A DNA stretch of 64,000 nucleotides from an uncultured delta proteobacterium (GTDB taxonomy: Bacteria; Desulfobacterota; Desulfomonilia; UBA1062): contig CAWAUM010000005.1 of assembly GCA_963785235.1 (NCBI GenBank), forward strand, positions 544,001-608,000, given 5' to 3'. Positions 10,374 to 40,274 of the stretch are shown here, piece by piece. Position 1 is the first letter of the stretch. Every line of letters begins with the position of its first letter. The notes under the pieces are model-generated. The model did not search any database. It saw only the letters and a list, made by a program, of their open reading frames with translations, and was not told the DNA's origin. Position numbers and translations under genes: made by a program.

Positions 10374-10851
10374 AACGCTTACTCAAAAATGATCTGCTAA
10401 CCCCAAAATCAAATCATGAACCATAGATTATTCAACAGCATCAGCAGTTCTACCAGACCTGAGAAACTGATGAGTACATGCCATCAGGTTCGCTCTAGAT
10501 TGAACTGTCTGTTTGTGTAGGTAATATTTGCAAATCACCGGTTCTGGGACATTCTGAAACCACCCATCTTATTGCATAATCATAGCTTTAGCCAATACGA
10601 ATAGTTTTGATCAAATCAGTGGCATACAATGATACACGGTTGTACTTATATGGCTAATAATTACTGTCTCAACCTTCATCCGTTCGAGTAAAAGAGTTAC
10701 TGTGTATTTCCCTTAAGTCCTGGCCATTTGATTCTGTACGTCCTTACAGCTTAAAAAGAGTACAACATGTAATCTGTCAGAATTGTATAGGACCTGCTGT
10801 CAATAGGTTATGATCCGGATGTTAGCCTTCACATCATTTTAAAAACCTTAC

Positions 10852-11193
10852 ATGGCATCAAATGTGGTTGTCTCAAAAATATTATACATTATATTAATCA
10901 TCATCATCAGGACCATCGTCCCGATCATCAAGGCAGAATCTCCAGTTCCCGGAGGAGAAGACGAAAGCGGGCTGGGCGATATCCAGCAGAGCTTCTTCAT
11001 TTCGCCCGTGAAACCGGTGAACGGATGGAGCATGGAGTTTGGTCCTGTTTTCCTCTATCCATCGGCGAGAAATGATGCCTTGGGAACCGAGAAGTGGTGC
11101 GCTGGACCGACTGGTGATGTGCTGAGGCAGGAAAGCGGGTTCACCTACGGCCTGCTGGCCAATCATCTCTGGTCATTTGCCGGCACCGTATGA
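10852..11193 (+). pseudogene. Fragment of a sulfatase-associated outer-membrane beta-barrel ('transporter') gene
   Basis: GLGDIQQSFFISP...FGPVFLYPSA...LGTEKW.AGPT...YGLLANHLWSFAG; no signal peptide, truncated at both ends. Confidence 0.55.
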
Positions 11194-11218
11194 AACTAAC
11201 AAAAAAAAGGAGAAAGTT

Positions 11219-11901
11219 ATGAAGAAATCAATAAAAATGGCAGTTGTAACAATGATCTGTTTCGCTTTCGCAGTGTCGGTCACTTCCTGCGCATAGGTTC
11301 AGAAGAACTCGGGTTTCCTGGGTGATAATTAGGTGATAATTACAAGAAGTTGGAACCGGGACCAGAAGGCTCTCTTAAAATGCGATGGATCAAGCCAGGA
11401 TATGATTTTACAAAATACAACAAGGTGATGCTGGACAGTGTTGTGTTCTACTTTGCCCCTGATTCAGAGGATAAGGGCATCGACGCTAATGTGATGAAAG
11501 AGCTGACAGACTCCTTCAACACTGAGCTGGTGAATGCCTTGAAAGACAAGTACACTATCGTTAATGAGCCGGGCCCTGATGTCATTCGCTGGAGGATTGC
11601 GTTGACAGGCATCAAGCAGAGCAGGCTTATCATTAGTTGTTTCTCCTCAGTCATGCCCCCCGCGCTGGCAGCCAATCCCGTAACCAAAGTCACCACAGGG
11701 GCATGGATCGGCTCAGGCGCAACAGGTGCGGAGTCGATGGTGCTCGACAGCATGACCAATGAGGTTATCGGCCTTGGCCAGGATGAACAGATTGCAGGGT
11801 TCACGGAAAGGTTCAGCACGTACGGGTCGGCTAATGAGGCCTTCAAGTTCTGGGCAACCAGAATGAGGGCTATAATGGACGTAGTTCAGACTAAGAAGTA
11901 G
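11219..11901 (+). pseudogene. DUF3313-like lipoprotein, disrupted
   Basis: RBS + MKKSIKM...VTSC lipobox; TAG at 11294-11296; tandem 11-bp duplication GGTGATAATTA (11321-11342) shifts frame; SGFLG and KYNKVMLDSV motifs. Confidence 0.7.
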
Positions 11902-11988
11902 TACGACGAGTGGTTTTACTAAAGATACGGGTTGAAAAGGTGGTGGCTGGTAGTTTAATATATTCAACAATGGGGAAAGGAGTGTGCA

Positions 11989-17438: not shown

Positions 17439-17731
17439 CTGGCTGGCGCCATGAATATTCCAGAACAGTCATACGGAATAGAGTATATCCATGAAATAAG
17501 GCTAACCCTCCAAAAGTTGGACCCTCCTGCATATTCATCGGGAAAGATAATGTGTCAGAGACAACGAACTGAGTTGATATTTCAAAACCATAGAGTACAT
17601 GCCAGGGATGACGCTTTGGTATGAAGCGACAAGTTTCATATGTTTCAACACAAGATCATCAGTATCTAAAGATTTTAAAACCAAGATTAATTTGAATAAT
17701 CTTAGATAATTGCAAACTGTTGATCGTGGCA

Positions 17732-19592
17732 GAGACCGTTGAAAAAGCTGTTTTTGAAACGAAAGATTTCCCGGTACTTTGGTTAGTTGGTTAGTGTACT
17801 ACCGATAGTCGCAGATTTTGGGTTTTATCGGACCATTCTTTGGTTTCTTATCTCAACCTTCATATCTTTCTCTTCATGCAAAGCCATAATTAGCTATCTT
17901 TCCGATGTTGTGTACCATGCAGTACAGCAACCACTGGATATTCACCTTGATCTTGCCCCTTACTGTGAACCGATCAAGCCGTTTGTGGGTGCGGATATTT
18001 GCGAACACCGGCTCTACTATGGCCATCCTCTGTGGGTAGATCCTGCGTCCCTTCTCACTCTCGATCTTCTCTATCATAAGCTTGGTGAGGTTAATACCAT
18101 CCGAGCCGATGGGAATGTTCAAGGTCTTTGGTCCACGGCCATTGCCATATATGCACTTACCTCTTAACATACAACCGCTGCAGTCCTGTTCTTGTGCACC
18201 ATATATTCGATAGAGCGTACCAGTACAGCGATGGCTCTTTACCTTAAGACCTAGTTTTTTGCCGTTGGGGCATTCGTACTGATCGCTCTCCTCATCATAG
18301 TGGAAATCCTCCAATGCATAATGGGTCCTGATCGAGCGCCCCTTCCTTCCCTTAAACCGAGGATCTCTTGTACGGAATCTCTTATCAGGTATGTAGGCAT
18401 CCATCCCTTCATCCATACACTTCTGGATATTCGCTTTGCTGTGATAGCCGCTGTCAGCAGCGAACATCGCCCCATTGAAGTAATCCCCGGGAAGACCTAT
18501 CTCCTCCACGTTTTCCTTGGCCCCATCCACCATCGGAGGAACAAGGTCATTATCATGGCCAGTACCGAATGCCTCCGCATGTACGATCACCTGTGTCTTG
18601 GAGTCCACTAGCGCTTGACCGTTATATCCCTGGATTGTCCCATTGGATGTCACCATTTTCGAAGACTCGTTGTCTGTGATATTGCTCTTGATCTCCTTTC
18701 CATTCACCCCGAGACGCTCCCCGTTCTCCTTAAGCCATGCCTCGATACGATCAGCCTGCTTCTTCAGTTTTTCGATCTGTCTGCATCGGTAGGAACGATT
18801 ATCAGGGGGAGTTGAATCATCATCTTCCTTCCGGTCTTCCTCTTCCTGTTCTGTCAGCAGTTCATTCACCTTCTCTTCGAGCTTCTGACGCTTCGCCCGT
18901 AACTCAGAAACCGTCCTGCTCCACTGCGGAGATGCATTGCATGATAGCTTGCACCCGTCCAATGCGAAGAACGTTCCCCCGAGTAGCTTCATCTCTTCGC
19001 AAACAAGCAGTACATCCCGAAACAGCGGCAGAATCTCATCCTTCATGGAACTCACGAATGTGGAGATCGTGCTGTGGTCAGGGTACTGCCCGCAAGAAAG
19101 CGCCATGAATACTACATTCTCATGGCAGGCCTGTTCGATCTTCCTCGATGATGTCAGACCCCGTGAATACCCCAGCAATATCACCTTAAGCAGTATCCGT
19201 GGATCGTATGCACGCCGTCCTGTCTCATCATTCCTGTATTTTTCATCGAACAGGCTCATGTCCATACGCTCATCCACAAGCGTGTAAATCGCATACTCCA
19301 GACTCCCGGGCATGATCTGTTCCTTCAACCCTACCGGTATCAGCATGTCCTGTGCGTATGTGTAAGGTTTATACTTTGCCATGGTACCCTCTCGCTTCAG
19401 GAATAGGGAGATTCAGAAAGAAATCTTTCCCGTTAAGACAATAACCTTATATCACATAATATATTGATAATAAAGATCTAATTTACTTTTTTATGAAATA
19501 ATTGATCTGTTTAGGTCTTCTGAACTCGGATTCTTTTTTAAATAAATGATCTGCTTCTATCCTTTGCGTTAGGAGGCTTTTTCAACAGTTTC
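17732..19592 (-). mobile_element. IS1182-family insertion sequence
   Basis: TIRs GAGACCGTTGAAAAAGC (17732-17748) / GCTTTTTCAACAGTTTC (19576-19592), 15/17 identical; flanked by GCA direct repeat. Confidence 0.9.
17874..19382 (-). CDS. IS1182-family DDE transposase
   Basis: GRRAYDPRILLK, SSRKIE, PDHSTI, ALDG, GYNGQ, ADSGY, VEPVFANI. Confidence 0.95.
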   Translation of the reverse strand: MAKYKPYTYAQDMLIPVGLKEQIMPGSLEYAIYTLVDERMDMSLFDEKYRNDETGRRAYDPRILLKVILLGYSRGLTSSRKIEQACHENVVFMALSCGQYPDHSTISTFVSSMKDEILPLFRDVLLVCEEMKLLGGTFFALDGCKLSCNASPQWSRTVSELRAKRQKLEEKVNELLTEQEEEDRKEDDDSTPPDNRSYRCRQIEKLKKQADRIEAWLKENGERLGVNGKEIKSNITDNESSKMVTSNGTIQGYNGQALVDSKTQVIVHAEAFGTGHDNDLVPPMVDGAKENVEEIGLPGDYFNGAMFAADSGYHSKANIQKCMDEGMDAYIPDKRFRTRDPRFKGRKGRSIRTHYALEDFHYDEESDQYECPNGKKLGLKVKSHRCTGTLYRIYGAQEQDCSGCMLRGKCIYGNGRGPKTLNIPIGSDGINLTKLMIEKIESEKGRRIYPQRMAIVEPVFANIRTHKRLDRFTVRGKIKVNIQWLLYCMVHNIGKIANYGFA

Positions 19593-19779
19593 GCACGTAA
19601 TCTCCAGTTTCTCAGGGCTTAAGGGACCGATGATTCTATTTCAGAATCAACCCTGTAATTCCTTTTTTTTATGACTTGACAGGGGAGAGGACCATTATTA
19701 ATGGTAAACCATATTGTGCATATTGTGGGGGATGGGAAAATACCCCTGCGTCCTTTTTGTGCAATATTGGAGGGTTCCT

Positions 19780-20688: not shown

Positions 20689-20876
20689 ATTTGAAGGCTG
20701 ATGTTTAAAAAATCCTAAGAAACTGATGAGTTCGCGTTAGAGACAATAATCGGAGTTTGGACTTTGAAACCATATCTGGCCGAAGGTGGTTGCATTCCTC
20801 CTTGTTGACCTGTATATCAATATCAGTTCAAGCCCCGCTCGGCATCCTTGCCGAGTGGTGTTCTGACCTCCTTTAC

Positions 20877-21353: not shown

Positions 21354-21385
21354 CATGCAAATGTATTAGAGATTTCTGCGATAAC

Positions 21386-22060
21386 GTGCGCCACGAAGGC
21401 GCGAAGAGGTAGCCTAAAGGGCTACATTGGAGCAGCCATGCTGCATGGAAGATGAGGGGAGGCCCCTCGGGATCGGGTTACAGGATCAGATCTCAAACCG
21501 CCTGGCGCTGCGTGGGGATAAGATCCCAGGTGGTGAGCGGTCCAGGAAAAGGCGAGGCAAGACCTTGTCAGGTGAGGACCAGGAAGGCGAACGAGAGTGA
21601 ACCACTGATGAGCTGTCGAAAAGATACAGACGTCATCGAAACCGGGCTTTGTTATCGGGTCCGGGACAGAGTCTGGGGGGAACCTGTTTACTGCCCAGAT
21701 GGTGGCCGGCAGAAAGGTGGCGCGAGCCTGGTACAGGCTTTCATGCGGAACGTGGGAACCTGGCGCTCTGATGCTAAGGGAGAAGTCGAAGTGGAGGCCC
21801 CATGAAGACGAGAGTACCGATGCAGAGCGCAGGGGCGGATCAGCCCGTAGTAGTGAAGAAACTTCTGTAATGGAAGTGGAGCGAAGGGGCTGAGCTGTCC
21901 AACCTTATTTATGAGTCAACCAGCAATGGGAGGAGCTTATGGATAAGGCAAAGTCGTTTGGTATAATACCTGCGACTGGACAGTAGGAGCCGGATGAGGT
22001 GAGAGTCTCACGTCCGGTTCTGTGAGGGCGTGGGGGTGCGATTCCCCTGCGCTACTCGAC
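21386..22060 (+). ncRNA. ORF-less group II intron (IIB, bacterial class D-like)
   Basis: 5' GTGCG; domain V GAGCCGGATGAGGTGAGAGTCTCACGTCCGGTTC; domain VI ending CTACTCGAC; EBS1 GTTATCG (21651-21657) complementary to IBS1 CGATAAC (21379-21385). Confidence 0.92.
21939..21986 (+). pseudogene. Vestige of the intron reverse transcriptase/maturase ORF (MDKAKSFGIIPATGQ*)
   Basis: GGAGGAG RBS, IEP-like start MDKAKSF joined in frame to a short tail that stops immediately before domain V. Confidence 0.75.
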
Positions 22061-28590: not shown

Positions 28591-28622
28591 AAAGGCAGGG
28601 TCAGTCAAAGCCCTGCCTTTTT
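28591..28622 (+). terminator. Intrinsic terminator
   Basis: AAAGGCAGGG-N10-CCCTGCCTTT followed by T tract. Confidence 0.75.
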
Positions 28623-28904: not shown

Positions 28905-29162
28905 CTATCGTTGTTTTTGCCTCCAATAGCTGTTGTAATGCGTAGGGCAACTGCATACTTTACTGAAGCCAATACTTGCTCGATACGGACATTCTTCATT
29001 TATTTTAGATTTCAAGAATAAGACATAAGGTCCATTAGCATAGCTAACTTCACACATCTCACGTTCGCCACACTTGCCAGATTCAAGGCAGGAGAATTCG
29101 TGTTGACACTTCGTTGTTAGGGTTAAGATCTCTTTAGGGACATAGATAGACATATTTACCAT
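28905..29162 (-). CDS. Small Cys-rich hypothetical protein
   Basis: Seven Cys (CQHEFSC, C....C, CPY, CSCP); AAGGGGG RBS. Confidence 0.55.
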   Translation of the reverse strand: MVNMSIYVPKEILTLTTKCQHEFSCLESGKCGEREMCEVSYANGPYVLFLKSKINEECPYRASIGFSKVCSCPTHYNSYWRQKQR

Positions 29163-29616
29163 CCCCCTTTTCTTACTTTTCTCTGTTAAGTATTATCTTT
29201 AAAACACCAGGTAAAACCAATCCGGCAAATTTGCCTCCCTTCATTTATAATTTTGACATAAACCTTCTGAATCTAGGGGTTCATAGTGGTGTAATGAAAA
29301 CAAAAAGGCATACAAGGAATCATTCAAAAGAGACACTCAATAGCATCAACAAAGAATCTATATGCAAATAATTAGACTTCTTAAAAATACTCGGTCACCA
29401 TGAAAATCAATAGCAAGGGTTGAAATAAAATACGAAAGTATAGCCATAGGGAGAACCATAGATTTCGCGCCAGGATCGGTACTTTATCCTCTAGCCTGAA
29501 AGGCATAGATCTCGTTACAGATCCAATACACACTCATTAGAAGCGCTCTAGCCAAAAAAACTAAGTTCTTTTAGATTGTGAACCGCATTTCCTCAAATTC
29601 CATCTATTAAGTAAGC

Positions 29617-29958
29617 ATGAGGAAAATACTGTTAGTAAGTGATGATAAACGCACCCAGCTACTTCTCAATGAAGAGTTTGAAGATGGGTATCAAGTATTG
29701 ACTGTGTCTAATAGGAAAGAAGCGCTTTCCCTATTAGCAAAAAATTCTAAAAAGCCAGACCTCGTTATCCTTGATCTCAGCGTACCTGAAAAAAGTAGGA
29801 TTGATACTCTTGGCCATATATTAAAGCAAAAGTTTAAATTACCCGTGATTATATTTCCAGCTTATAGCATCTTTAGGAAAGACACATTGAGAACAGAAAT
29901 TGATACATACAGGGTTAGATCTTCAGATATTTCGGCGCTAAGAAAAAAAGGTCCATGA
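29617..29958 (+). CDS. Degenerate single-domain response regulator receiver
   Basis: KILLVSDD, PDLVILDL, LPVIIF; conserved Thr/Ser and Lys positions altered. Confidence 0.7.
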   Translation: MRKILLVSDDKRTQLLLNEEFEDGYQVLTVSNRKEALSLLAKNSKKPDLVILDLSVPEKSRIDTLGHILKQKFKLPVIIFPAYSIFRKDTLRTEIDTYRVRSSDISALRKKGP

Positions 29959-30339
29959 CCTGATATAGAGCTGAAGTGTAGATCATGTGTCATACCTGAC
30001 ACTCATATCTGGCCTGATTTCATTATAGATTATATTTTGAGATTATCTGTTTTCAGTCCTTACAAAAGTGTCCGTCTATCGCAGGGATCAACGCTATAGG
30101 CAAACCGATGATTATGGTTAAAAGCATTCAGTAATCAGAAACCACTGTTCATGGCAGAGACTGTTGCCCATTAAAAGGTTCTGTCAATGAGAAAATAGTT
30201 CTCCCATTACAAGAGCCGTTATCTCTTGCAGAGTTTACCATTGCGCCAGCACGGACGATTCTCCTTCTCTCCGATCTCGCATCAGTTATTTCTTTTTCTT
30301 GGTTACGATTCATTTATCCTGAACCGCACCAGTCACCCA

Positions 30340-30660
30340 TCGGGATCAAGGTTGCCAGGTATGGCTGTTGCGAAGCGGAGAGACATAAGGAATCTCGGAG
30401 CGAAGAAACAGCCATACCTGCGTAACCCCTGGCCTGATATCCAGGCCCCAGAAAATCGTCTGTTCCCTGGTATGTCCAACTTATTTCTCAAAACCCTTGG
30501 CTCTATGTCCAAACTCGTATGGTTCATATCAGAGGCGGATCAGAAAGTGATTATCCTTCCCTGCTGAATAATCTTAAATTTAGAGGCATAGGGTGGTGGA
30601 TCAATCAAAAAACAGTGGTTGTCGGCCAACAGTCTCCCCGAACTCACCACCCCAGCCATT
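30340..30660 (-). ncRNA. Predicted bridge/seek RNA of the IS110 element (boundaries approximate)
   Basis: GGGUGGUG...CACCACCC stem enclosing matches to both target flanks; 30356-30420 contains matches to the donor junction. Confidence 0.65.
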
Positions 30661-31686
30661 CTATGAGAACAAGGCCTCCTCCTTGAAAGGAACCTGATCT
30701 CTCATGATGTAATAGCAAGCACGGGAAAGCTTGTTTGCCAGTGCCTTCCTCGCAATAATAGGATTCGTTTCCCGTGACTTGCGCTGATAGTACGCATTTG
30801 CCCGTTCACTGTAGATTCTGGAAAAATTACTAGCTTCCATAAATGCCCAGGCCAGATACTTGTTCCCGTTCTTTTTGTTGCCAACCCCTTTCTTCTTTCC
30901 ATTGCTGGTGTGCACACTGGAGACACACCTGCAGTACGAGGAAAAATTGCCAACACTAGGGAATCGGGATATATTCCCTACCTCCAGCATGATGGTCATC
31001 GCCAGGATATCTCCGATACCGATGACAGTAAGCAGATTCTCAAACCCAGAGCGTATCTTTAAAACCTTCCGCACTGCCTTTTCTATGCTCGTTATGTGGT
31101 GGCCCAGGAAATCAACGATGTTCGTACTCACCTTCCCAGAGAACAACAGATGTTCGTCGGTGAAGATCTTCTTCAAATCATCAGGGCACAGCTTCTTGAT
31201 CCCTGCTCCATTTATTCGCATCCCCGTGTTCCGTTCAATCATTGATTGGCATGAGAGGAGATTGGCTGTCCTGTGCCGCATCAAAAACGCTCTCTTCCTC
31301 AGCAGATCTCTTACCGGTCTGTCTTCCTTGGGGTAGATGTACCCTTCTGGTAGAATACCAAGGATCAGAAGTTGAGCTAGCCAGAATGCATCATGACGGT
31401 CGTCTTTATACTTGATCCCTTCATATTGTTTGATCGCTGACGGATTCGCTAAATGTAAGCAACCATATCCCGCTTCCATCAACCCGTCGACCAGCCAGTA
31501 CCAGTTGTATGTGCTCTCAACAACGATCCCCTTCACCTCATCATGGTAAGGCTCCAACGCCTGTAGTATCTCACCAAGGTCATTATTGTGCCTATTCTGG
31601 TAAACCCTTCTTTTCGATTCACCTTCCATGATTCCCATGTATGTGTTCCTTGAATGCAGATCCAACCCAACATACAGCTCTCCCAT
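30661..31686 (-). CDS. IS110-family DEDD recombinase
   Basis: VGLDLHS, VVESTYNWYW, KDDRHDA, GIG, RF.S...F.SY, TSNGKKKG, LANKLSR. Confidence 0.95.
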   Translation of the reverse strand: MGELYVGLDLHSRNTYMGIMEGESKRRVYQNRHNNDLGEILQALEPYHDEVKGIVVESTYNWYWLVDGLMEAGYGCLHLANPSAIKQYEGIKYKDDRHDAFWLAQLLILGILPEGYIYPKEDRPVRDLLRKRAFLMRHRTANLLSCQSMIERNTGMRINGAGIKKLCPDDLKKIFTDEHLLFSGKVSTNIVDFLGHHITSIEKAVRKVLKIRSGFENLLTVIGIGDILAMTIMLEVGNISRFPSVGNFSSYCRCVSSVHTSNGKKKGVGNKKNGNKYLAWAFMEASNFSRIYSERANAYYQRKSRETNPIIARKALANKLSRACYYIMRDQVPFKEEALFS

Positions 31687-31975
31687 AAGATGCCTCCTCT
31701 TTCTTTTTATCCGTTAACGGCTCTTATGATTTGTAGAGTGAACCTTTTAGATGGCTATCAAAAAACCTTCACAGGATGGAACGTGATAAAAATCGACATC
31801 ATAGAATGCTCTACGATGGAAGATCTTTTATCGGGGCTTGTGTTTTGATGGTTTAAATTTGGTGGTTTTTGAGATCGCCGGACTTTTTCAACAGACTCGC
31901 ATGTAACATATATTCATACTGTAAATTATCTATACTAATACCCATTGTGTTTATGAGTATGTCTTGAGTATTCCA

Positions 31976-32647
31976 TTAAAGCAGCATGAAAGGGCTCATG
32001 GGCAACCATTTTTTCTTCCATCCATCAGAGGCGATCTGTTTAGTCAAAGCTGGAGGTATCTTTTTTGAAATAACAGCCCTTTCTGCAGGAGGAAGGTTAT
32101 ATAAGAGGAAAGGAACCACAAGATAATCCGGTACTGCGTGCTTGTGGATATATTCATTGAAGATTCTGCTAAGCCTTGTCTGTTCTCCATATCCGATTGC
32201 CATATCTATTTTGTCAGTGGTGAAATACTTTTCTTCAACCTCTATATGAGGATGCCATTTCTCTTTAGTGTCACCCAATTTTCTATTTAAGACTCCAAGG
32301 TGTTCTCCAAAGCTCCTACTTGACATCGGTTCTTCCATGGTTTTCACAATGCTATCAAGGTCATTCATCATATCCTGATGCTGCGTTCTCAGCATATCAA
32401 ATGGTACTTCAGGCATTCTGTATTTCAGATATGGATATACGATCTTGTCTTCGAGATGATGGTGACCGTTCATTACTGAGATGAGGCTTTTCACATAACT
32501 GATAAATCCCCTGTTTTTTGATTCATTGATATGTCTTGCCAGGCTGGAAGAATGACTGTATCCAAGAGCAACATAGAGACCTCGTGTAATCACAGAATGG
32601 ATACGGATCAGGTCTTTTCCGATATCTGGTGTGTCACTAATGAACAT
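31976..32647 (-). CDS. Hemerythrin/HHE cation-binding domain protein
   Basis: RIHSVITRGL, HHHLED, QH, HIEVEE. Confidence 0.75.
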   Translation of the reverse strand: MFISDTPDIGKDLIRIHSVITRGLYVALGYSHSSSLARHINESKNRGFISYVKSLISVMNGHHHLEDKIVYPYLKYRMPEVPFDMLRTQHQDMMNDLDSIVKTMEEPMSSRSFGEHLGVLNRKLGDTKEKWHPHIEVEEKYFTTDKIDMAIGYGEQTRLSRIFNEYIHKHAVPDYLVVPFLLYNLPPAERAVISKKIPPALTKQIASDGWKKKWLPMSPFMLL

Positions 32648-32657
32648 ACTCTCTCCT

Positions 32658-32999
32658 TCATTCAGTTCTATCAACCTGTTCATTACTTAATAAGATCTTG
32701 GTAACCCGCATCAGTGACATTTTTGATTTTACAGCACTATTAAGCACCTCATATTCATGCCTACTTATAGGTCTGATCCTATCTTTTATCTGAAATTGGT
32801 TTGTACGAAAGCAGTACGGACAGGTTACATCGACTGCTGTAATGTCATAGCTCAATCCCGCCCCTTCCTTCTGTAGATAAGACATGCCATTGGATGGGAT
32901 AGTGGAGGAGTTGAATGACTCGACTGGAATGATTTCGTTGCATCCAGGATAACGACATTTGAAAACATGATAATTGCGATTATTTTCAATACTATTCAT
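32658..32999 (-). CDS. Zn-ribbon hypothetical protein
   Basis: CRYPGC ... CPYC; poly-G RBS before ATG 32999. Confidence 0.55.
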   Translation of the reverse strand: MNSIENNRNYHVFKCRYPGCNEIIPVESFNSSTIPSNGMSYLQKEGAGLSYDITAVDVTCPYCFRTNQFQIKDRIRPISRHEYEVLNSAVKSKMSLMRVTKILLSNEQVDRTE

Positions 33000-33068
33000 A
33001 ACCCCCCCCCTTCTGTGTGTTGAAGGCCCAGTAACCATCTTTTTAACCTTCCAGTTTCACCGACAGTA

Positions 33069-33125
33069 TTCAATAGGTGTGCCAGCCACCTCTATTTATT
33101 CAGAATTAATGATATCAACATATTA
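33069..33125 (-). promoter_or_regulatory. sigma54 promoter plus IHF site for the Zn-ribbon/hemerythrin pair
   Basis: Minus strand TGGCACACCTATTGAA (33084-33069); TATCAACATATTA (33113-33125) fits WATCAANNNNTTR. Confidence 0.6.
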
Positions 33126-33372
33126 GAGGAGTCCAGAATAAACTGTGGTCCTGGACTATGAAGTTTTTGTCTTGTCGCATAGGATTGATCCTGTGATTCA
33201 GGAAAGCCAGACTGTTCTCTTCAGGCTTATGACGATAAGTGAGCACTTCTTAAGGAACACATATTAGATCAATTCAACTTGCTTGGGGTCATCATTTTAA
33301 TACTAATGAAATCTAAGTATATTTCGTATTCTGTGGTTTGATCTTTATTGCGGAATATCATGATAAAAATGA

Positions 33373-33753
33373 TTAGCAGGCTAATACGCTCTGAATAGCT
33401 TCTGCTAATTCGGATCTTGAAAATGGCTTAGGCAGGAATCTCTGAACGCCTATCCCTTCACTGTCAAGTTCCTGCAAAACCTCTTCCGAGCCAGAACAGA
33501 GTATCACAGGTATGTCTTCCCGTATCTTGCGTGCAAGGGTCACAAGCTCATGTCCTTTTAACCCAGGCATGAATTGATCAGTGATAATAATATGAAATTT
33601 ATCCGGTTCTTCACGAAATAAATTGATTGCTTCATCTGGGTTGATGGTAGAGGTCACATTGTAACCAAGATGTTCAAGAAGCCGACTGATACTTCGCAGG
33701 TCTGACCAGTTATCATCTACAAGTAAGATATGCTTCGTTCGTAGTCCGTTCAT
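33373..33753 (-). CDS. Single-domain response regulator
   Basis: ILLVDD, IITDQFMP, ILCSG, LPKPF. Confidence 0.92.
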   Translation of the reverse strand: MNGLRTKHILLVDDNWSDLRSISRLLEHLGYNVTSTINPDEAINLFREEPDKFHIIITDQFMPGLKGHELVTLARKIREDIPVILCSGSEEVLQELDSEGIGVQRFLPKPFSRSELAEAIQSVLAC

Positions 33754-33775
33754 TTGGAAATATTATGTTAAGTTT

Positions 33776-36700
33776 CTAACTCAAAGAATCAAGGTGTAAT
33801 GGGAAAAATATCTCGAACCGGGTTCCCTTTCCTACCTCGCTATATACCAGCATGGAGCTTTGGGAATTCTTGACAACTGAATAAACGATAGCAAGGCCCA
33901 GCCCGGTGCCTTCTGCTTTCCTCGTCGTAAAGAATGGATCGAATATGTCCCCCATAATCTCCGGTTTAATCCCAGACCCAGTATCGCTGACAGTGAGCTT
34001 CATGTACTTTCCAGGATTAAGATCATTGCCAATGGCGGGAGTCGCTTGTGTAATCTCAGTCTCATCGAGCGACACATCCAGAGTCCCACCCTTGCGACTC
34101 ATAGCCTGTGCTGCATTTGTGCAGAGATTGAGAACCAGTTGATTGATCTGAGTTGAATCAGCATTTACCAGATAGCCATTCATAGTTATATCGTCATGAA
34201 GATTGATATTGGGTGAGAGCGTTTGCTTGACAAGTTTCAAGGCTTTATGGACAACCTGACTAATTGGAATGGGCTTGAGTATCGGATTCAGGCTTGAGCC
34301 GAAAGACTTGATCTGCTTGATTAGGGTTCTACCAAGCTGTGCTGCATCGATTATCTGATCAAGATACTCCCTCTCTTGTGTCCCTGCTGGAAGCTTATCT
34401 GATATCATCTCTGAGTTGAGGAGTATCGGCTGGAGTATGTTATTCAGATCATGGGCTATACCCCCTGCCAACTTGCCCAGGGCTTCCATTCTCTGGGCTT
34501 GTATAAGCTGGACCTCAAGCCTATTCCTTTCTTCTTCAGAATGTAAACGTTCAATCATTTCCTTATGAAGTTGTAAGTTCGTATCTTCTAGTTCATTTGT
34601 TCGTTGCATAATTAGTTCTTCCAGGTGCTCACGGTAACTTTTCAAATCCTCCTCAGCCTGCTTGCGTTTGGTGATGTCTGTAAGCATGGATAGAGTACCT
34701 TTGAAATGACCTTCAGAGTCATACATGGGTATGGCATTGGATATCACCCATAGAATGGAACCATTTTTCTGATGAAGCTTAAATTCTTCATGTGTTCCTT
34801 TCCCTGCTTTCAGTTTTTCTCTGACCTTTAGTGCAAGTCGTTCTTGATCCTCATCTAAAAATTCTGATGGGGCTCTGCCAATCATTTCCTCTATTGTACA
34901 ACCAAGCATATCTGCCATTCTCTGATTAATTAATATGGTTTTCCTCTCAGTATCTGTGATCCAGATACCTTCGTTTGCAGTCTCTACAATTGTGCGGTAC
35001 TTTTCCTCGCTCTCACGGAGTGCCTCTCCAGTCTGTATCAGCTCAGTGACATTCCTAAAATACCCGATCAGGCCATCGATCTGGCCCTGCGCATCAAATT
35101 TTGGAATATACGATCCGTTGAAAAATTGTTGGCCTCCTTGGGTAGAAGACACAGGCATCTCCAGATGTATAGATTTGCCTGTCTCCAGGACCTGTCGCTT
35201 GATTTTTGTGAGGGATTCCGCATCTTTCTTCGTTAAGATATCAAAATCGGTTTTACCTATCATATCCTGTTCCGACAGACCCAGTTGAGGATTTACTACA
35301 AATGTATAGCGCAATTCACGGTCCTGTAACATGATATGGTCAGGGGTACTGGATGTGATCGCCTTGAACCGCTCCTCGCTCTCCCGCAAGGACTCCTCTG
35401 CTTGCTTGCGTTCGGTGATGTCCATGAATATAACAGCAAACTGGCCCTGTATCGGGCGATAGGCATAGACATCATAGTGTCTCTTGAGCACTGGAGAATA
35501 GTTGTCGAATTGAACTGGATTACCCGTTAGGGCTACCTTGCCATAGATTTGTAACCACTTGGGGTCATCATTGGGTAAGATATCATTATGTCTTTGGCCT
35601 ACGACCTTCTCTCGTTTAAGGCCAGTCTGTTGTTCAAATGCTGGATTGATCTCCAGAAAGCGCCAATCGCAGGGATGGCCCTGGTCATCCAGGATGATCT
35701 CATGCAAGGCGAAGCCTTCGGTCATTCCGGTGAATAACGACTGATACTGTTCTTTACTCTGCAGTAACGCCTCCTCGGATTGCTTACGTTCAGTGACGTC
35801 CCGGATAATGATCTGAACAGCAGGCTCACCCTGTAAATTTACAATGCTGCCTACGGTCTCAACCGGAGTTACTCGGCCGTCCAAGCTCATCATCCTGGTT
35901 TCCCGCAATGGAACTCTCTGTTCCACCAGTGCCAGTTGCATCCGGGCTTTTATTGCATCACGGTCATCAGGATGAATTAAGTCAGGAACCGTTTTAGCCT
36001 GAAGTTGTTCGAGCGAATCTGCGCCGTACATTTTTAGAGCAACAGAATTTGCATAGAGAAATCTTCCATTACGGTGAACGATAACACCATCCGGTGATGA
36101 CTCTACGAGTGACCGATAGCGTGCTTCACTTTCACGGAGCGCCTTCTCCAGTGGCAAAATCCAGGTACCACTTTGTCTTACTGAAGAGATTGTGGCAATC
36201 AATAGGTACACTCCACCAAGATACTGTGAAAATCTACTGGTCCAGTTCAAAGGACTACCGAATTTTGTTTGCAATGAGACACCTAAAAGACCAACTACTA
36301 TCAACCCAAAGCCTAAAGTACACCAATAATAAAAATTCGACTTGCTTGATCCATAGTTAAACCTCAGTAAAATGGCAGAAGCTGTGAATAACCCCGCAGT
36401 GGTCCACAGGGTCAGAAGGTTGTATATAGTTGCGCCATGGCCATCAATAAAAAAAACCGGCAGCAGTTCATTGCGGACTGCCATTACGAAGATAGACTCG
36501 ATCACCATGATTCCAAGATAAAAAGTCAGCAAAACGGGCCATCCGGACCTCAGTCTCCACGGTTTAACTGACCCTCCCTCAAGGGCGCTGATCGTGATGC
36601 AGAGTCCTGCTAGGAATGCAGATAGATTGTAAACAGTAACCGTCCAGTTTGGACCGGGTTTACCAAGGGGCAGGGCTCCAAGCGCTCCACCCAAACCCAA

Positions 36701-37000
36701 GGCCAGCATTCCACAACCAAACAGAAGGAAAAAACTGGTATGAGTTCCTAAATAGCTCCTTGCTGCCAACAAAGACACGAGGAATGTGATTATTGTCAGG
36801 AAGGTAATATTCAGGACTTTAAGAAGGTTGGGAGGATTCCAGACAACTTCTATAGGAATGAAGGCTAAGGCTATGATAGTGATAAAAAAAATAACTACAG
36901 GCAGCCAGGCTATGCTTTGGATTAAACTTGTGAGAGATTGTGATGAATGAGATACTTGAGAGTCTCTGGCCTTTGCTTCTCGCCGATCGACCCCAATCAT
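33776..37000 (-). CDS. Membrane-bound sensor histidine kinase with four PAS domains
   Basis: Multi-TM N-terminus; four PAS starts (SSPDG, GMTEG, STPDH, TANEG); AHDLNN, NLCTNA, DTGSG, FDPFFTT, GTGLGL. Confidence 0.95.
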   Translation of the reverse strand: MIGVDRREAKARDSQVSHSSQSLTSLIQSIAWLPVVIFFITIIALAFIPIEVVWNPPNLLKVLNITFLTIITFLVSLLAARSYLGTHTSFFLLFGCGMLALGLGGALGALPLGKPGPNWTVTVYNLSAFLAGLCITISALEGGSVKPWRLRSGWPVLLTFYLGIMVIESIFVMAVRNELLPVFFIDGHGATIYNLLTLWTTAGLFTASAILLRFNYGSSKSNFYYWCTLGFGLIVVGLLGVSLQTKFGSPLNWTSRFSQYLGGVYLLIATISSVRQSGTWILPLEKALRESEARYRSLVESSPDGVIVHRNGRFLYANSVALKMYGADSLEQLQAKTVPDLIHPDDRDAIKARMQLALVEQRVPLRETRMMSLDGRVTPVETVGSIVNLQGEPAVQIIIRDVTERKQSEEALLQSKEQYQSLFTGMTEGFALHEIILDDQGHPCDWRFLEINPAFEQQTGLKREKVVGQRHNDILPNDDPKWLQIYGKVALTGNPVQFDNYSPVLKRHYDVYAYRPIQGQFAVIFMDITERKQAEESLRESEERFKAITSSTPDHIMLQDRELRYTFVVNPQLGLSEQDMIGKTDFDILTKKDAESLTKIKRQVLETGKSIHLEMPVSSTQGGQQFFNGSYIPKFDAQGQIDGLIGYFRNVTELIQTGEALRESEEKYRTIVETANEGIWITDTERKTILINQRMADMLGCTIEEMIGRAPSEFLDEDQERLALKVREKLKAGKGTHEEFKLHQKNGSILWVISNAIPMYDSEGHFKGTLSMLTDITKRKQAEEDLKSYREHLEELIMQRTNELEDTNLQLHKEMIERLHSEEERNRLEVQLIQAQRMEALGKLAGGIAHDLNNILQPILLNSEMISDKLPAGTQEREYLDQIIDAAQLGRTLIKQIKSFGSSLNPILKPIPISQVVHKALKLVKQTLSPNINLHDDITMNGYLVNADSTQINQLVLNLCTNAAQAMSRKGGTLDVSLDETEITQATPAIGNDLNPGKYMKLTVSDTGSGIKPEIMGDIFDPFFTTRKAEGTGLGLAIVYSVVKNSQSSMLVYSEVGKGTRFEIFFPLHLDSLS

Positions 37001-37428
37001 GATGGCCTCTCCCCCCTACATTTGAAAGCAACTATTTGGTCAAAGTATAATACATATTATACCATATGAAGCTAAAGGACAAATATCAAGATGTTAGCTA
37101 AATAAAGTCGATGAATAATAGGCGGCCTTACCTCCTTAAAAACTTTTTCTCAAAACAGAGACCATGCAATAAGATGGGTGGTTCTAGAATGTCCCAGGAC
37201 CAATGATCTACAAATAGAATCAACGGTTCCACGAGTTTTGAGAAACTGATGAGTTCGTGCCAGGTGCAACGCTTTTTGATTATTGAATATTTGTAACCAT
37301 AATCTTCACCTATTTTCAATAGCCATGGCAAGAATCTCCCGACTCATAAATATTTGATCAATCTGGAGCATTACATAGGTCATGAAAGGTCATTTTTCTT
37401 GTAATATTTCATTGCTAATATTTTCAAA

Positions 37429-37502
37429 ATAGTTACGCTTTTGACTTTACAAGCCCCTAGGTATGTTATATAGTTACGCTAATAGTTAATACCGTAACTA
37501 TA
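37429..37502. repeat. ATAGTTACG boxes over the recombinase promoter
   Basis: ATAGTTACGCT at 37429 and 37470 (direct) and CGTAACTAT at 37493 (inverted); TTGACT at 37441. Confidence 0.6.
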
Positions 37503-37522
37503 ACGTGTTTTGGAGGTGCTTT

Positions 37523-38122
37523 GTGACTGCAAATAAATCACCAGCAAATAAGGGTAAAAAATATCCCCCGGAAGTCCTCTCTCCGGACGAGATCACTGTG
37601 CTACTAAAGACCCCTTCCAATAGGGCACCTACAGGAATCCGTAATCGAGCATTGCTTTATCTTGGTTACAGGGCAGGACTCAGATTATCAGAAGCCCTAG
37701 CTCTTTACCCCAAGGATGTAGAGACCGACACAGGCATTGTCCATATTCTTCACGGCAAAGGAGGCAAGGCCCGTACTGTAGGCCTTCCCCCAGATGCCTG
37801 CATGGCTCTTGATCGATGGCTTGATAAGAGGACAAAGCTGAAGCTCAGCAACAAGGTGCCTATCTTCTGTACCCTGGATGGCGAGCCTATCAGTGATTCA
37901 TATGTGAGGGCATTGATGAAGAGACTGCAGGAACGTGGAGGAATAGACAAGAGGGTTCACTTCCATGGTCTACGACACACTTGTGCTTGGGAACTTGCCA
38001 AACAGGGTGTACCCATGCCTATAATCCAGAAGGCTCTTGGGCATACATCCTTGCAGACTACGGACAGATATCTAAGTCATGTAGCACCCCATGATGTTAT
38101 TGATGTAATGAGAAACAGATAG
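37523..38122 (+). CDS. Minimal tyrosine recombinase (catalytic domain only, ~200 aa)
   Basis: RNRALL, GLRLSE, GKGGKAR, HGLRH, LGH, TTDRY. Confidence 0.93.
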   Translation: MTANKSPANKGKKYPPEVLSPDEITVLLKTPSNRAPTGIRNRALLYLGYRAGLRLSEALALYPKDVETDTGIVHILHGKGGKARTVGLPPDACMALDRWLDKRTKLKLSNKVPIFCTLDGEPISDSYVRALMKRLQERGGIDKRVHFHGLRHTCAWELAKQGVPMPIIQKALGHTSLQTTDRYLSHVAPHDVIDVMRNR

Positions 38123-38144
38123 CTATCCTGATGAGAGGGAAAGA

Positions 38145-38348
38145 ATGATTGGATTGAGATCTACTGATGGTGATCGGTCATTTCAGGTTTATGATGATGA
38201 CATGCTTATTGGTCATATCCAGTTGCAGAGTGGTATGACAGGAGAGAAATATTTTGCATCGGTTGATAAGGATGGAGAAGAGGTTACAGCTGGGAAGGAG
38301 TTTAACAGCCCTAACGATGCTCTCAAGTGGATTGAGAACCAAAGATAA
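38145..38348 (+). CDS. Small hypothetical protein, paralog A
   Basis: GAGAGGG RBS; about 39/68 identical to 38794-39000 by manual alignment. Confidence 0.75.
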   Translation: MIGLRSTDGDRSFQVYDDDMLIGHIQLQSGMTGEKYFASVDKDGEEVTAGKEFNSPNDALKWIENQR

Positions 38349-38550
38349 GACACTACCTACCCCACCTTTATTGTTAATCCATCTCTTACTGGTGACAATG
38401 ATTAATGAGATGGCTTCATGAGACTCTTAAAGCCTGGATAATCGTCACAGCAATATAGCAAGATCTTTGTGTCATCAATGGGTCGTTTGATGAGACATGC
38501 AGTGTGGGGCTTCACATCGTCAAGAAGTTACTGAAAGTTGTGATGCCGGA

Positions 38551-38680
38551 GGTTCTGTCAGTTTTGGCAGTGCTCATTATCTCTGTGGGGACATATACAA
38601 GGTTTGAGAAGTTCAATCCACTTACCCTGCAACAATACCTCCTGATCTCTTATGTATGAACTGTCAAAACTGCCAAAACC
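38551..38680. repeat. 21-bp imperfect inverted repeat
   Basis: GGTTCTGTCAGTTTTGGCAGT (38551-38571) vs ACTGTCAAAACTGCCAAAACC (38660-38680), 18/21. Confidence 0.7.
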
Positions 38681-38793
38681 TGAGAGACAGCATGCATCAA
38701 GATGGAGTATACTGGCTCTCTGTGTTCAGATATGTTAATATTCTAATGGCAATATGATCTGTAGGAGCTTCTTATACCTAAGGATAAAAACAA

Positions 38794-39000
38794 ATGATCG
38801 CATTGAGATCTTATGCAAGTGATGGTTCGGTGTTTCAAGTCTACAATGATGACGAGCTCATTGGCCATATCCGCAGGCAAAGCAGCTTGCACGGCGATAA
38901 ATATATGGCATCAATTGATATGAATGGTGAAGAAAAGAGCACTGGTAAGATATTTGATAGTCCTGATGAGGCTCTTCGCTGGATTGAGATAAAGCGATAA
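38794..39000 (+). CDS. Small hypothetical protein, paralog B
   Basis: Shares FQVY.DD.LIGHI, KY.AS.D..GEE, F.SP..AL.WIE with 38145-38348. Confidence 0.75.
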   Translation: MIALRSYASDGSVFQVYNDDELIGHIRRQSSLHGDKYMASIDMNGEEKSTGKIFDSPDEALRWIEIKR

Positions 39001-39242
39001 ATCTTTTCTCTAGGCAACTTGATACCAGGGTCTGAGTAAAGATTATGGTTTCAAATGTTCAGTAATCATAAACCATTGCAGATAACGAAATCTATGGTTT
39101 TGAAAATCCCAACTCAGTTCGTTGCCTTTGACACAGGATCAACGAGTTATTAGCGATATTTTTTCAATAGTATTTCGTAACTTGCCATTCATACTGTACA
39201 GGAATAAGCTGTCGATAACGCAGCATATATGGAGGTGGTTTC

Positions 39243-40013
39243 ATGAAGATTCAACATGTCCGAAATGCATGCATGATCATTCATTACAATGAGCATAGAA
39301 TTTTAGTAGATCCCTGCCTCAACTCAAAAGGCAGCTTGCCGCCATATACCCTTTTTCGTAAGAGGCCTAGGCTTAACCCCATTGTTGATTTACCCCCGAA
39401 TGCGGAATCCATGTTGTCTAAAATAACATCCGGACTTATTACACATTGCCGTTATGGACATTTTGATCATCTTGATAAATCAGGAATTCGCCTGTTGGCG
39501 CAAAAACAAGTCCCTGTATATTGTAACTCCCTTGATGAACCGTCTCTGAGGCGACGCCACCTCAATACAATGCCCCTTACAATGAATCAGAGAAGTCAAT
39601 TCCTCACGGGAAGTATTACCACCTTTCCTACTGCACATGGACACGGTTTAGAAGGTGTACTCATGAGACCCGGAGCAGGATATTTAATTGAACTGCCAGG
39701 GGATAAATCTATTTATATCAGTGGTGATACTGTTATGACTCAAACTGTCAAGCATGTACTCAATGACCTTCGGCCTGATATTTCCATATTAAATGCAGGA
39801 ACAGCAATCCTTGATTTTGGAAGACCCATTCTTATGCCGCTCAATGAGCAGTTGGATTTTATAAGAACCGCACCAGGTAAGGTCATTGCCGTGCATCTGG
39901 ATGCTTTTAATCATTGTTTAACAACTCGTGATATACTCAGAGATGCTGTTTCAAAAGAAGGGTTGTCCAGCAAAGTGATGATCCCGGAAGATGGAGAATT
40001 AATAGAGTTATAA
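39243..40013 (+). CDS. MBL-fold metallo-hydrolase
   Basis: RNAC, LVDP, THCRYGHFDH, YISGDT, AVHLDAFNHC. Confidence 0.9.
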   Translation: MKIQHVRNACMIIHYNEHRILVDPCLNSKGSLPPYTLFRKRPRLNPIVDLPPNAESMLSKITSGLITHCRYGHFDHLDKSGIRLLAQKQVPVYCNSLDEPSLRRRHLNTMPLTMNQRSQFLTGSITTFPTAHGHGLEGVLMRPGAGYLIELPGDKSIYISGDTVMTQTVKHVLNDLRPDISILNAGTAILDFGRPILMPLNEQLDFIRTAPGKVIAVHLDAFNHCLTTRDILRDAVSKEGLSSKVMIPEDGELIEL

Positions 40014-40274
40014 ACTTGGCTATCAAAGTACTCCAACGGACGTGGTGGTGGCGCATAGTTGAGATTTGGCTTCACCCCATATGACTATCTCTTCGATTTC
40101 ATCTTGGTTTTGAGATGGCCGAAAACCGATGGTCTTGGTTTCAGATCTATGGTATTCAGGCTACAAGCTCAAAGTGTCAGCTCTGACATGAACTCATCTG
40201 TTTTTAAGGCCTCGTGGAACCAGCTATTTTTATTGCATAATCAATGGCTCATGATCTGAGTTTGGCGTCAGCAA

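Follow-up and report, generated by a model that had tools for sequence, protein, structure and literature searches.

What are the short sequence junctions that punctuate the gene modules of this genome, and which machinery produced them? The window, a 64,000-nt stretch of the genome, contains a strain-specific, low-GC flexible region (the island) in which a first-pass annotation had noticed an asymmetric site of ~33 bp with shuffled halves and had proposed a new site-specific gene-capture array. We find that the motif is the shared junction of lineage-specific mosaic interspersed intergenic repeats. With a probability of roughly 0.55, we favor the reading that the junction family resembles the intergenic mosaic elements of Neisseria (NIMEs, built of dRS3 and RS units) and serves as the target of IS110 recombinases.

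To count the sites, a 35-nt scoring matrix was trained on 20 sites, every one outside the window; matches of at least 16 bits were taken as strong sites, and three mononucleotide shuffles served as background. The 3.91-Mb genome contains 56 strong matches compared with a mean of 4.0 in the shuffles, and the 30.1-kb island contains 8 compared with 0.43 expected under an even spread. The remaining 33.9 kb of the window gave no match even down to 8 bits, in agreement with the earlier impression that the motif is absent there. Junctions together with insertion sequences are ~19-fold denser in the 30-kb stretch than the genome average. All 10 left halves initially listed were found in place, 8 of them reaching 16 bits and those at 20720 and 22923 being weak. 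The motif is nevertheless not confined to the island, because ~48 further strong sites exist in the rest of the genome; the idea of an island site of ~33 bp holds for the enrichment, but not for the confinement or for the size of the repeat units, which measure 40-170 nt, with composite loci of up to ~330 nt.

The junction consists of a left arm RAKTTYCRTGCCA, an N4 spacer, and a right arm TGRCRCTCWGR, and its center is an imperfect palindrome, GYGYCA-N4-TGRCRC. Spacers differ between sites. The units around it fall into left types A, A2, B, and C and right types R1-R7, and the change between left and right types is sharp at TGCCA-N4. Both right-half types described at first are present, CA-N4-CAACG at 17553, 37258, and 39129-39133(-), and CA-N4-TGACRC at 17600, 29988, and 40184-40188(-). 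Approximate regex classing, with one known misclassification, recovered 15 of the 24 possible combinations of 4 named left and 6 named right types over the 56 sites. The shuffling of halves across an asymmetric junction is real, and it is genome-wide. The island holds 3 of the 6 genome copies of AAACTGATGAGT, all 3 copies of GAACTGAGTTG, and 7 of the 35 copies of AACCATAGA. Parts of the loci match one another in both orientations.

The island is bracketed by two inverted copies of a B-type unit (10402-10483 and 40184-40267; nhmmer E 1.3e-7), and its sites sit 7-90 nt past stop codons. Its features are as follows.

8853-10373: sigma-54 activator gene; the first island site starts 29 nt after its stop.
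10402-10483, plus strand: B-type left unit with core TGCCA at 10479-10483, the first island site (site 10464, 32.8 bits).
10484-10613, plus strand: R2-type right unit, with copies 79-90% identical at C3:503.8 kb, C7:301.6 kb, and C7:304.2 kb.
17553-17604, plus strand: cores TGTCA (17553-17557) and TGCCA (17600-17604) around a 42-nt A2 unit (CAACGAACTGAGTTG...AAAACCATAGAG) (site 17585, 32.2 bits).
17609-17731, plus strand: R1-type right unit with an inverted core TGGCA (17727-17731) at its end; many genome copies, with an uninterrupted version at C1:402.3 kb.
17732-19592, minus strand: IS1182-family insertion sequence inside a core (NCBIfam NF033551, 312 bits), with terminal inverted repeats; inserted after CGTGC, with a probable 3-bp duplication GCA.
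19593-19649, minus strand: B-type left half severed by the IS1182 insertion.
20720-20739, plus strand: weak, degenerate site with a B-type left half and core CGTTA (8.7 bits).
22923-22941, plus strand: weak C-type site 34 nt past the STAS gene (12.6 bits); the gene and this left half are duplicated at C5:160.2-160.6 kb, with an R1 unit next to them.
25790-25844, plus strand: A2-type left unit with core TGCCA at 25825-25829, lacking a repeated right unit (site 25810, 19.3 bits).
26965-27070, plus strand: R3-type right unit whose left half is truncated.
28730-28889, plus strand: C-type left half, core at 28744-28748, and R1-type unit (27.7 bits; up to 21 genome matches).
29453-29472, plus strand: site with core CGCCA (20.8 bits).
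29974-30156, plus strand: C-type left half, core at 29988-29992, and R4/R6 unit of ~165 nt that closes in an inverted core TGGCA at 30152-30156 (18.9 bits).
30157-31758, minus strand: IS110-family element at a core, with its transposase at 30661-31686.
31759-31790, minus strand: left-half remnant beside the IS110 element.
37164-37309, plus strand: B-type left unit, core TGCCA at 37258-37262, and R6 unit at 37265-37309 (site 37243, 29.4 bits).
37523-38122, plus strand: small tyrosine recombinase of 199 aa, catalytic domain only (Pfam Phage_integrase, 1e-39).
39036-39133, minus strand: inverted R6 unit (39036-39080), degenerate core (39081-39085), A2 unit, and core TGACA (39129-39133).
40092-40267, minus strand: R7 unit, core TGACA (40184-40188), and B-type left unit, the last island site (site 40203, 24.5 bits).

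Beyond the island, nhmmer detected ~55 intergenic repeat loci in the genome, clustered in several flexible regions with 5-14 loci per cluster; 53 of 55 overlap no ORF of at least 80 aa. Within the genus, 7 of the 14 other genomes carry the repeats; 37 genomes from 13 other genera of the family had none. With the same junction recurring at so many loci around gene-less units, and in half of the other genus genomes, the notion of a new, island-specific gene-capture array is not supported. The orientation of the sites showed no clear replication-strand bias (41 of 72 agree with GC skew). A search for palindromic "empty" targets, YRTGYCA N0-10 TGRCAYR, returned 12 chance-like matches, including the weak island site 22923. 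No clean insertion polymorphism was seen at C13:164 kb, where all 3.6 kb are specific to the strain.

The insertion sequences link the junction to an enzyme family. Seven copies of IS110-family elements were examined, 5 in the related genome G002, a degenerate one in G000:C12, and the one in the window, and all 7 lie in the junction, sharing one insertion position (YRTG|CCA) and one orientation. One side is flanked by a left half ending in YRTG, the other by CCA-N4 and an R1- or R6-type unit; GTG is common to both junctions, and the insertions have neither terminal inverted repeats nor long duplications. The transposase in the window carries the Pfam domains DEDD_Tnp_IS110 (PF01548) and Transposase_20 (PF02371) and scores 162 bits against NCBIfam NF033542 (cut-off 140), named "IS110 family RNA-guided transposase", while the G002 copies keep an intact 341-aa ORF. 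Moreover, both IS1182 copies, in the window and at C13:34.8-36.5 kb, are inserted after CGTGC of a core. At least some of the sites mark site-specific integration, and this part of the earlier interpretation is retained without the island-specific capture array.

Traces of the same process may be present in the repeats themselves. The 9-mer ATAATCATC constitutes the first 9 nt of the IS110 element and is found in 21 A-type units, where it directly follows a left-half-like TAGATT... stretch, mirroring the real IS110 insertions; the genome contains 88 occurrences compared with ~28 expected. This signature was seen only in A-type units, none of them in the island. Among the genus genomes, the IS110 clade is present in all 4 others with at least 9 repeat hits (G002, G003, G004, and G011), in 0 of 3 with 1-2 hits, and in 0 of 7 without hits; the carriers are relatives, and the co-occurrence is therefore not independent evidence. 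Blastn-short comparison of IS110 ends with repeat units revealed no similarity other than that of the window element to its own flank. Each copy had 0-3 exact 8-mers in common between the IS interior and the target or donor sequences, compared with ~1.9 in shuffles, and guide-RNA complementarity is therefore not supported by this measure, which split short guides would escape. Rfam gave no match for an IS110 non-coding (bridge) RNA at E up to 1.

Comparison with relatives showed that breaks of synteny coincide with the site; this applies to relatives 92-95% identical and, more broadly, to those 87-95% identical. Homology to G011:C7 starts at window position 37251, placing the break (37251-37258) at the core, and another stretch of 92% homology to the same contig ends at 25844, the end of a right arm. 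Homology to G002:C17 stops at 39083, where G002 keeps an intact core, and C3:119745 is a further break against G011 at a site. Metagenome contigs from runs X2 and X3 diverge after 37262 and at 40185. A single inversion-type joint in run X1, from 27005 to 39085, was given no weight, because its shorter side comprises 33 letters and lies in repeat sequence. Uncovered stretches and the small shares of runs X2-X20 have no bearing on habitat or absence. G004 lacks the island; there, genes orthologous to window 42.6-49.5 kb come after the orthologue of the activator.

We also compared the junction with known recombination sites. The first-pass annotation had judged the motif unlike attC, dif, REP, and CRISPR, and folding, Rfam, Y1_Tnp-flank, and dif searches bear this out. 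Seven elements folded as DNA were no better than shuffles (z -1.06 to +0.43), which rejects an attC-like hairpin; two wider windows, with z -0.26 and -2.09, were no better either. The genome has its own integron integrase (C12:115398-116384; TIGR02249, 464 bits) with its own attC array, whose true attC sites are classical, GC-rich, and without resemblance to the junction. It is the only integron integrase in the genome and lies on another contig than the island. An nhmmer search with 5 true attC sites found no match in the window; a crude RYYYAAC...GTTRRRY scanner was dropped as too strict, being blank even at the true integron. In a search for dif, an 11-6-11 site with a conserved XerD arm, the sole dif-like site was C5:398700 (...GTTATGTTAAAT), unlike the junction. 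Rfam matched a group II intron and a tRNA and assigned no family to the sites. The two Y1_Tnp genes of the genome (C11:76.1 kb and C1:221.8 kb) have no member of the repeat family within 1.9-2 kb around them, which speaks against a REP/RAYT system, and the junction differs from CRISPR. The stacked ends of a Tn7/Mu-like element, once offered as an option, are contradicted by the 93% complete genome, which has no rve/TnsB/MuA-type transposase: PF00665 gave no match, whereas 6 of the 14 reference genomes in the control search had one.

The small tyrosine recombinase of the island is probably cargo. It scores 79.5 bits against the integron integrase profile TIGR02249 (cut-off 265), and relatives of ~200-215 aa form over 2000 clusters. 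Apart from G011 (93%) and G003 (79%, cut short), no genome had an orthologue. Inverted repeats flanking its distant homologues were not above control at 44 metagenome loci. The suggested co-occurrence of motif and recombinase failed, as the enzyme does not co-vary with the repeats, and a shufflon or invertase system was rejected on these grounds.

Could the junctions nonetheless be crossover sites of a true site-specific cassette system? The enzyme would be another recombinase or IS110 recombinases acting on two target-like sites; a segment between co-oriented sites would leave as a circle with one hybrid site and reinsert elsewhere, so that halves would be shuffled and gene modules reassorted. 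The hybrid left/right combinations seen are those expected from exchange at a fixed core, and co-orientation is strong at some places, with 7 of 8 strong island sites, 5 of 5 at C12:0-11 kb, and 6 of 6 at C13:26-37 kb. In addition, G002 and G011 hold the island genes singly, at scattered places; in G000 and G011 the recombinase module keeps the same right side but has a different left partner, switching exactly at the core (likewise 39083 against G002); and X2 and X3 contigs ~98% identical to 39444-40185, the MBL-fold gene module, diverge at 40185. A 2026 preprint bearing the title [quoted passage not shown] would be in keeping with such a system. On the other hand, most sites bound gene-less units of 40-170 nt, the spacers vary, which is unfavorable for tyrosine-type exchange, the orientation relative to the upstream gene is merely 35 of 55 loci genome-wide, and the small recombinase is missing from G002 and G004 despite 13-14 or more repeat hits there. 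The modules are not conserved as site-bounded cassettes either: no site was found in the examined flanks of three other MBL-fold copies, paralogues or orthologues (G000:C12, G002:C5, and G011:C454), which speaks against a site-bounded cassette of this gene; in G011, the far end of the recombinase module carries no site, and the start of the AtpI-like module falls inside a gene. We regard such a system as doubtful overall, and it is similarly unlikely that the junctions form a second cassette system, independent of the integron, that exchanges anything from 40-nt units to multi-gene modules as circles. If it were true, its enzyme could be IS110-type RNA-guided recombinases and the island a natural array from bridge-type recombination.

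It is also unlikely that the units are ordinary MITEs moved by a DDE transposase, for example an IS1182-family enzyme, the core being two abutted TG...CA ends. Units such as 29997-30156 start with TGAC and end with TGGCA, the loci match in both orientations as noted above, all are intergenic with many at contig ends, and the IS1182 terminal repeat (GAAACTGTTGAAAAAGC) resembles a ATCAACGGTT-type motif recurring in units. However, the units lack target-site duplications (29992-30156 lies between TACC and GAGA) and clear outer ends, as similarity continues from unit to unit. The genome also lacks TnpB as well as an rve-type transposase, and at C1:456.5 kb G002 carries an unrelated replacement of ~190 nt instead of a clean empty site. 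Furthermore, all combinations retain the palindromic core, something that independent abutted ends would not require. It is very improbable that the junction is a non-mobile protein-binding or RNA element kept for a function in the cell, for example a site for a nucleoid or regulatory protein or a REP-like 3'-end transcript element. The spacing of the half-sites GYGYCA and TGRCRC by one helical turn and the position of the loci, 44 of 55 facing at least one gene 3' end, would suit such a role, but neither the folding nor the Rfam results given above do, and strong clustering in flexible regions, with presence in only half of the genus, is unlike a housekeeping operator.

The reading of mosaic repeats targeted by IS110 recombinases runs as follows. 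IS110/IS1111-type elements of the genus would use the junction as a specific insertion target, entering between YRTG and CCA in one orientation and leaving a fresh ...GTG|CCA junction at the 3' end. Full-length and miniature elements of this kind may have inserted time and again, then decayed and recombined at their common core, and in this way given rise to the chains of units and to the shuffled combinations of left and right types. We infer this step from IS110 insertion to the entire mosaic; single-orientation insertion does not by itself explain the inverted site pairs 29988/30152, 37258/39081, and 10479/40184. The locus could serve as a natural case for studying where the targets of RNA-guided recombinases come from, how their number grows, and how they mold flexible parts of a genome, and for asking whether these enzymes rearrange the host DNA lying between targets as well. 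For annotators, the junctions account for the contig breaks and the mosaic islands of these genomes.

Several known systems share parts of this architecture. BIMEs are built on REP palindromes linked to RAYT transposases; like BIME and BOX elements, the repeats here are modular, intergenic, and composed of a few alternative motifs in varying combinations, but both Y1 transposase genes of this genome lack a flanking repeat. Integron attC sites, imperfect palindromes of 55-140 nt that fold as hairpins and have R''/R' boxes, are likewise co-oriented after the stops of unrelated genes in a flexible region, and hybrids are expected from their exchange, whereas the junction lacks the attC hairpin and mostly flanks gene-less units. 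IS621 targets REP, and lineage-specific repeats as landing sites of IS110-type elements are known in a few cultured bacteria. [quoted passage not shown] IS621/ISPpu10 and the present elements agree in that all copies lie in one conserved intergenic repeat at a fixed position and orientation, lack terminal inverted repeats, and encode an IS110-family transposase. Unlike REP targets, the junction is not a stable GC-rich hairpin, and alternative flanking units surround it in a mosaic.

[quoted passage not shown] The junction sequence itself is unrelated (GYGYCA-N4-TGRCRC with longer asymmetric arms, and no dRS3), the phylum is another, and ~55 loci stand against hundreds in NIMEs. The enzyme by which phages act on dRS3 is a member of the IS110 family, and to our knowledge mosaic arrays of this type have been described only in Neisseria. 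The likeness extends to a short inverted-repeat junction between many unit families in intergenic arrays (at least 4 left and at least 6 right families here, an analogy and not a homology), to insertion sequences inside arrays that coincide with variable neighboring genes, and to a junction that serves as an integration site for a transposase or recombinase. An unrelated sequence in an uncultured lineage would thereby display a Neisseria-type mosaic architecture.

Sensitive self-comparison and nhmmer searches with 13 island seeds revealed that every junction site is embedded in longer repeated sequence, and nhmmer located ~55 repeat loci across the source genome (G000; 3.91 Mb in 13 contigs, C1 to C13, GC 0.50-0.54). 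Many of these loci form clusters, frequently at contig ends:

C13:26-72 kb, 11 repeat loci
C12:0-11 kb, 5 repeat loci
C12:293-295 kb, C3:501-504 kb, C7:299-304 kb, C8 and C9:11-17 kb, further clusters

Overlap with ORFs of at least 80 aa is absent at 53 of the 55 loci, and the upstream gene has the same orientation as the repeat at 35. The genes in the clusters outside the island are ordinary regulatory and metabolic ones, and no recurrent mobility gene was found among them.

When the loci were aligned in register, the left units (types A, A2, B, and C) shared the end ...RAKTTYCRTGCCA, and the right units (R1-R7) started four bases after it with TGRCRCTCWGR or with variants of this sequence, CAACG among them. 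Between copies of different types, the likeness breaks off exactly at the junction. The proposal of the first-pass annotation that the two halves of the site are shuffled is borne out, as 15 of 24 possible combinations (4 left and 6 right types, approximate classing) occur among the 56 strong sites. Cores border units on both sides; window 17553-17604, for example, contains two cores that enclose a single A2 unit of 42 nt. The repeats are thus chains of short units, with the junction as punctuation.

A 35-nt matrix trained on 20 sites, all outside the window, gave 56 matches genome-wide at a threshold of 16 bits, compared with 4.0 in shuffled sequence, which places the proposed motif clearly beyond the shuffled control. 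At this threshold, the island (window ~10.4-40.3 kb) contains 8 sites, 7 of them on the plus strand, an enrichment of ~19-fold, and the other 33.9 kb of the window contain none, in agreement with the first reading by eye. All ten left half-sites listed at that stage were found again; eight are strong (16 bits or more), whereas those at 20720 and 22923 are weak. The motif is enriched in the island but not exclusive to it, given the 56 sites in the genome. Site orientation agreed with GC skew in 41/72 cases and does not follow the replication strand.

Insertion sequences lie within the junction. The ends of a ~1.57-kb IS110-family element were set by aligning six copies, five from G002, another genome of the genus, and one degenerate copy from C12 of the source genome. 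At their 3' side, the six copies have ~280 nt that are non-coding. In site orientation, one flank is always a left half ending in YRTG (types A2, A, and B), and the other is CCA-N4 and then a unit of R1 or R6 type. The element starts with ATAATCATC and ends with ...AATGGGTG, so that both junctions share GTG and a fresh ...GTG|CCA junction is present at the 3' end. The IS110 element of the window is more distant (60% protein identity) and is arranged in the same way: the conserved sequence of its end starts 8 nt away from the 30152-30156 core, and the remnant of a left half lies at 31759-31790. All 7 IS110 copies examined are therefore in the site. The window gene is intact (341 aa). The C12 copy (C12:145319-146875; fetched locus L167, 1719-3275) contains no 200-aa ORF and is a decayed copy, since its transposase match has two TGA stops and one TAG stop. 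In two IS1182 insertions, the element follows CGTGC of a core, and C1:402.3 kb has an uninterrupted version. In 21 A-type units, ATAATCATC immediately follows a left-half-like stretch, as in the real insertions; the sequence suggests that the A-type unit, at least, may be a miniature derivative of an IS110-type element. The genomes of the genus in which the IS110 clade occurs are exactly the ones with many repeats, an association that is not independent because the genomes carrying both are related.

The window spans C5:544001-608000, and across its 22-40 kb stretch GC drops to 0.37-0.47. The related genome G004 joins its orthologue of the sigma-54 activator gene (window 8853-10373) directly to orthologues of window 42.6-49.5 kb, which identifies 10.4-40.3 kb as a strain-specific island. 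Its genes are a mixed assortment:

DUF3313 protein, sulfatase, outer-membrane protein, multihaem/TPR protein
IS1182-family transposase, two MBL-fold proteins, RHH protein, STAS protein
hydrolase-PilZ fusion, HU, SnoaL, FYDLN and AtpI-like proteins
short-chain dehydrogenase, PEP-CTERM protein, response regulators
IS110-family transposase, hemerythrin, PAS histidine kinase, 199-aa tyrosine recombinase
21371-22089, ORF-less group II intron (Rfam RF01999, 104 bits; RF00029, 63 bits)

The intron has a 97% identical copy at C12:293.3-294.0 kb, immediately adjoining a repeat locus, and at least 8 copies in G002 (92-94%). Inverted B-type units of ~82 nt (10402-10483 and 40184-40267) bracket the whole island with their cores facing inward. 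At the right edge (40537-41533), two adjacent 163-aa ORFs lie on the minus strand; one corresponds to the N-terminal half of an NAD-dependent epimerase, and the pair suggests a split or truncated gene. In the related genome G005 (C147, fetched locus L013, 3354-3470), a pair of junction sites scoring 12.1 and 26.5 bits lies just 3' of the orthologous activator gene, in the opposite orientation to the window and with different neighbours; G004 has no junction site at the corresponding position. The 3' flank of this gene may be a recurrent hot spot.

Within the genus, a 162-nt repeat query matched 7 of 14 other genomes; in 13 other genera of the family, it matched none of 37 genomes. In the species-level genome collection, the exact 24-letter R1 pattern occurred in only three records, two titled uncultured delta proteobacterium and the third an archaeal-bin contig of 2.3 kb. 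G011 and G002, which share DNA with the source genome at 91-95% identity, carry the island genes at single, dispersed locations. The junction coincides with the end of a shared block in four instances:

window 37251-38252 and G011:C7, R6 unit and recombinase kept on the right side, left half different, switch exactly at TTCGTGCCA
window 38793-39083 and G002:C17, core intact in G002 and degenerate in the window
C3:119.7 kb and G011, R1 unit and right flank retained, left half and left flank different
window 25375-25844 and G011, 92% block stopping where the right arm ends

Breakpoints between relatives thus coincide with the motif at these four ends, but several module ends lie away from sites. 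No site lies near any of three further MBL-fold gene copies, and at C1:456.5 kb G002 carries an unrelated replacement of ~190 nt rather than an empty site. Five metagenome contigs from two runs diverge after window 37262 (assembled contigs, which drop rare variants), and contigs ~98% identical to the MBL-fold module diverge at 40185, inside the core 40184-40188. Any sharp mosaic junction would produce branching of this kind, which is not independent proof of recombination here.

Exchange of gene-sized modules mediated by the junctions would accord with the shared orientation of sites in a cluster and with the exact swaps at window 37258 and 39083; site-bounded gene modules are lacking elsewhere, however, and we consider this explanation unlikely. 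A dedicated enzyme was sought in the 199-aa tyrosine recombinase, which is intact, single-copy in the source genome (one C-terminal fragment lies beside a repeat at C13:68.2 kb) and flanked by inverted R6 units (37265-37309 and 39036-39080). Its family, which is very large, consists of ~200-215-aa proteins comprising only the catalytic domain. The suggested co-occurrence with the motif failed for this recombinase: orthologues are confined to G011 and, shortened, G003, and are absent from the repeat-rich G002 and G004. Flanking inverted repeats were found above control at 0 of 44 metagenome homologue loci. Since orthologues do not track the repeats and homologues lack such flanks, the recombinase is probably not the dedicated enzyme and looks like cargo. 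Upstream of its gene (37420-37505), ATAGTTACGC occurs twice directly and once inverted (CGTAACTAT), resembling a putative operator. Two paralogous ORFs of 67-68 aa without a Pfam family lie 3' of the recombinase gene:

38145-38348, first ORF
38794-39000, second ORF, 67% identical to the first in DNA

A third copy is at C10:128.0-128.2 kb, and in G002:C17 one copy accompanies an R6 unit.

Known kinds of element were also compared. Hairpin folding of the repeat elements was no better than for shuffled sequence, and Rfam contained no family for the sites. The genome does possess a classical chromosomal integron with at least 6 co-oriented cassettes, including an MBL-fold protein, a class D beta-lactamase-like protein and toxin-antitoxin pairs:

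C12:115398-121000 (fetched locus L034, 4395-10000), integron outside the window, integrase at C12:115.4-116.4 kb (TIGR02249, 464 bits)
C12:9.1 kb, C12:43.5-44.3 kb, C13:33.9 kb, C13:55.1 kb, C8:27.4 kb, C1:83.2 kb, C7:181.3 kb and C9:54.4 kb, stray attC-like sites

Some stray sites fall within junction-repeat clusters, and the window contains none. The integron's GC-rich attC sites are wholly unlike the junction, both Y1 transposase genes lack a flanking repeat (RAYT/REP), and the sole good dif-like sequence (C5:398700, ...CGATAATATATGTTATGTTAAAT), a candidate chromosome dimer resolution site, also differs; the first impression that the motif is none of attC, dif or REP therefore stands. The genome encodes no TnpB, and no rve-type transposase, which removes the Tn7/Mu-like ends that had been offered as an alternative.

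We favour, with a probability of roughly 0.55, a system of mosaic repeats in which the junction serves IS110 recombinases as their target. What is demonstrated comprises the junction itself, the mosaic of units, the clustering of the loci, the insertions of IS110 and IS1182, and the synteny breaks coinciding with the junction; the mosaic would have arisen through recurrent insertion, miniaturisation, decay and core exchange. Against the completeness of this reading, likeness to IS110 ends is not detectable in most units, a search for IS110 guide complementarity to the junction did not demonstrate any, and the inverted site pairs are not accounted for.

The architecture resembles that of the intergenic mosaic elements of Neisseria (NIMEs), described in PMC1797815 as many families of 50-150-bp units separated by a short inverted-repeat junction, in arrays that also contain insertion sequences, with variable neighbouring genes and a junction used by a phage transposase/recombinase. 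The restriction of IS110 insertion to a conserved intergenic repeat recalls ISPpu10, an IS110 element that, according to 10.64898/2026.03.19.712850, inserts only in one such repeat. Combining NIME-like architecture with ISPpu10-like targeting, the present repeats are read as a new, unrelated example of such systems.
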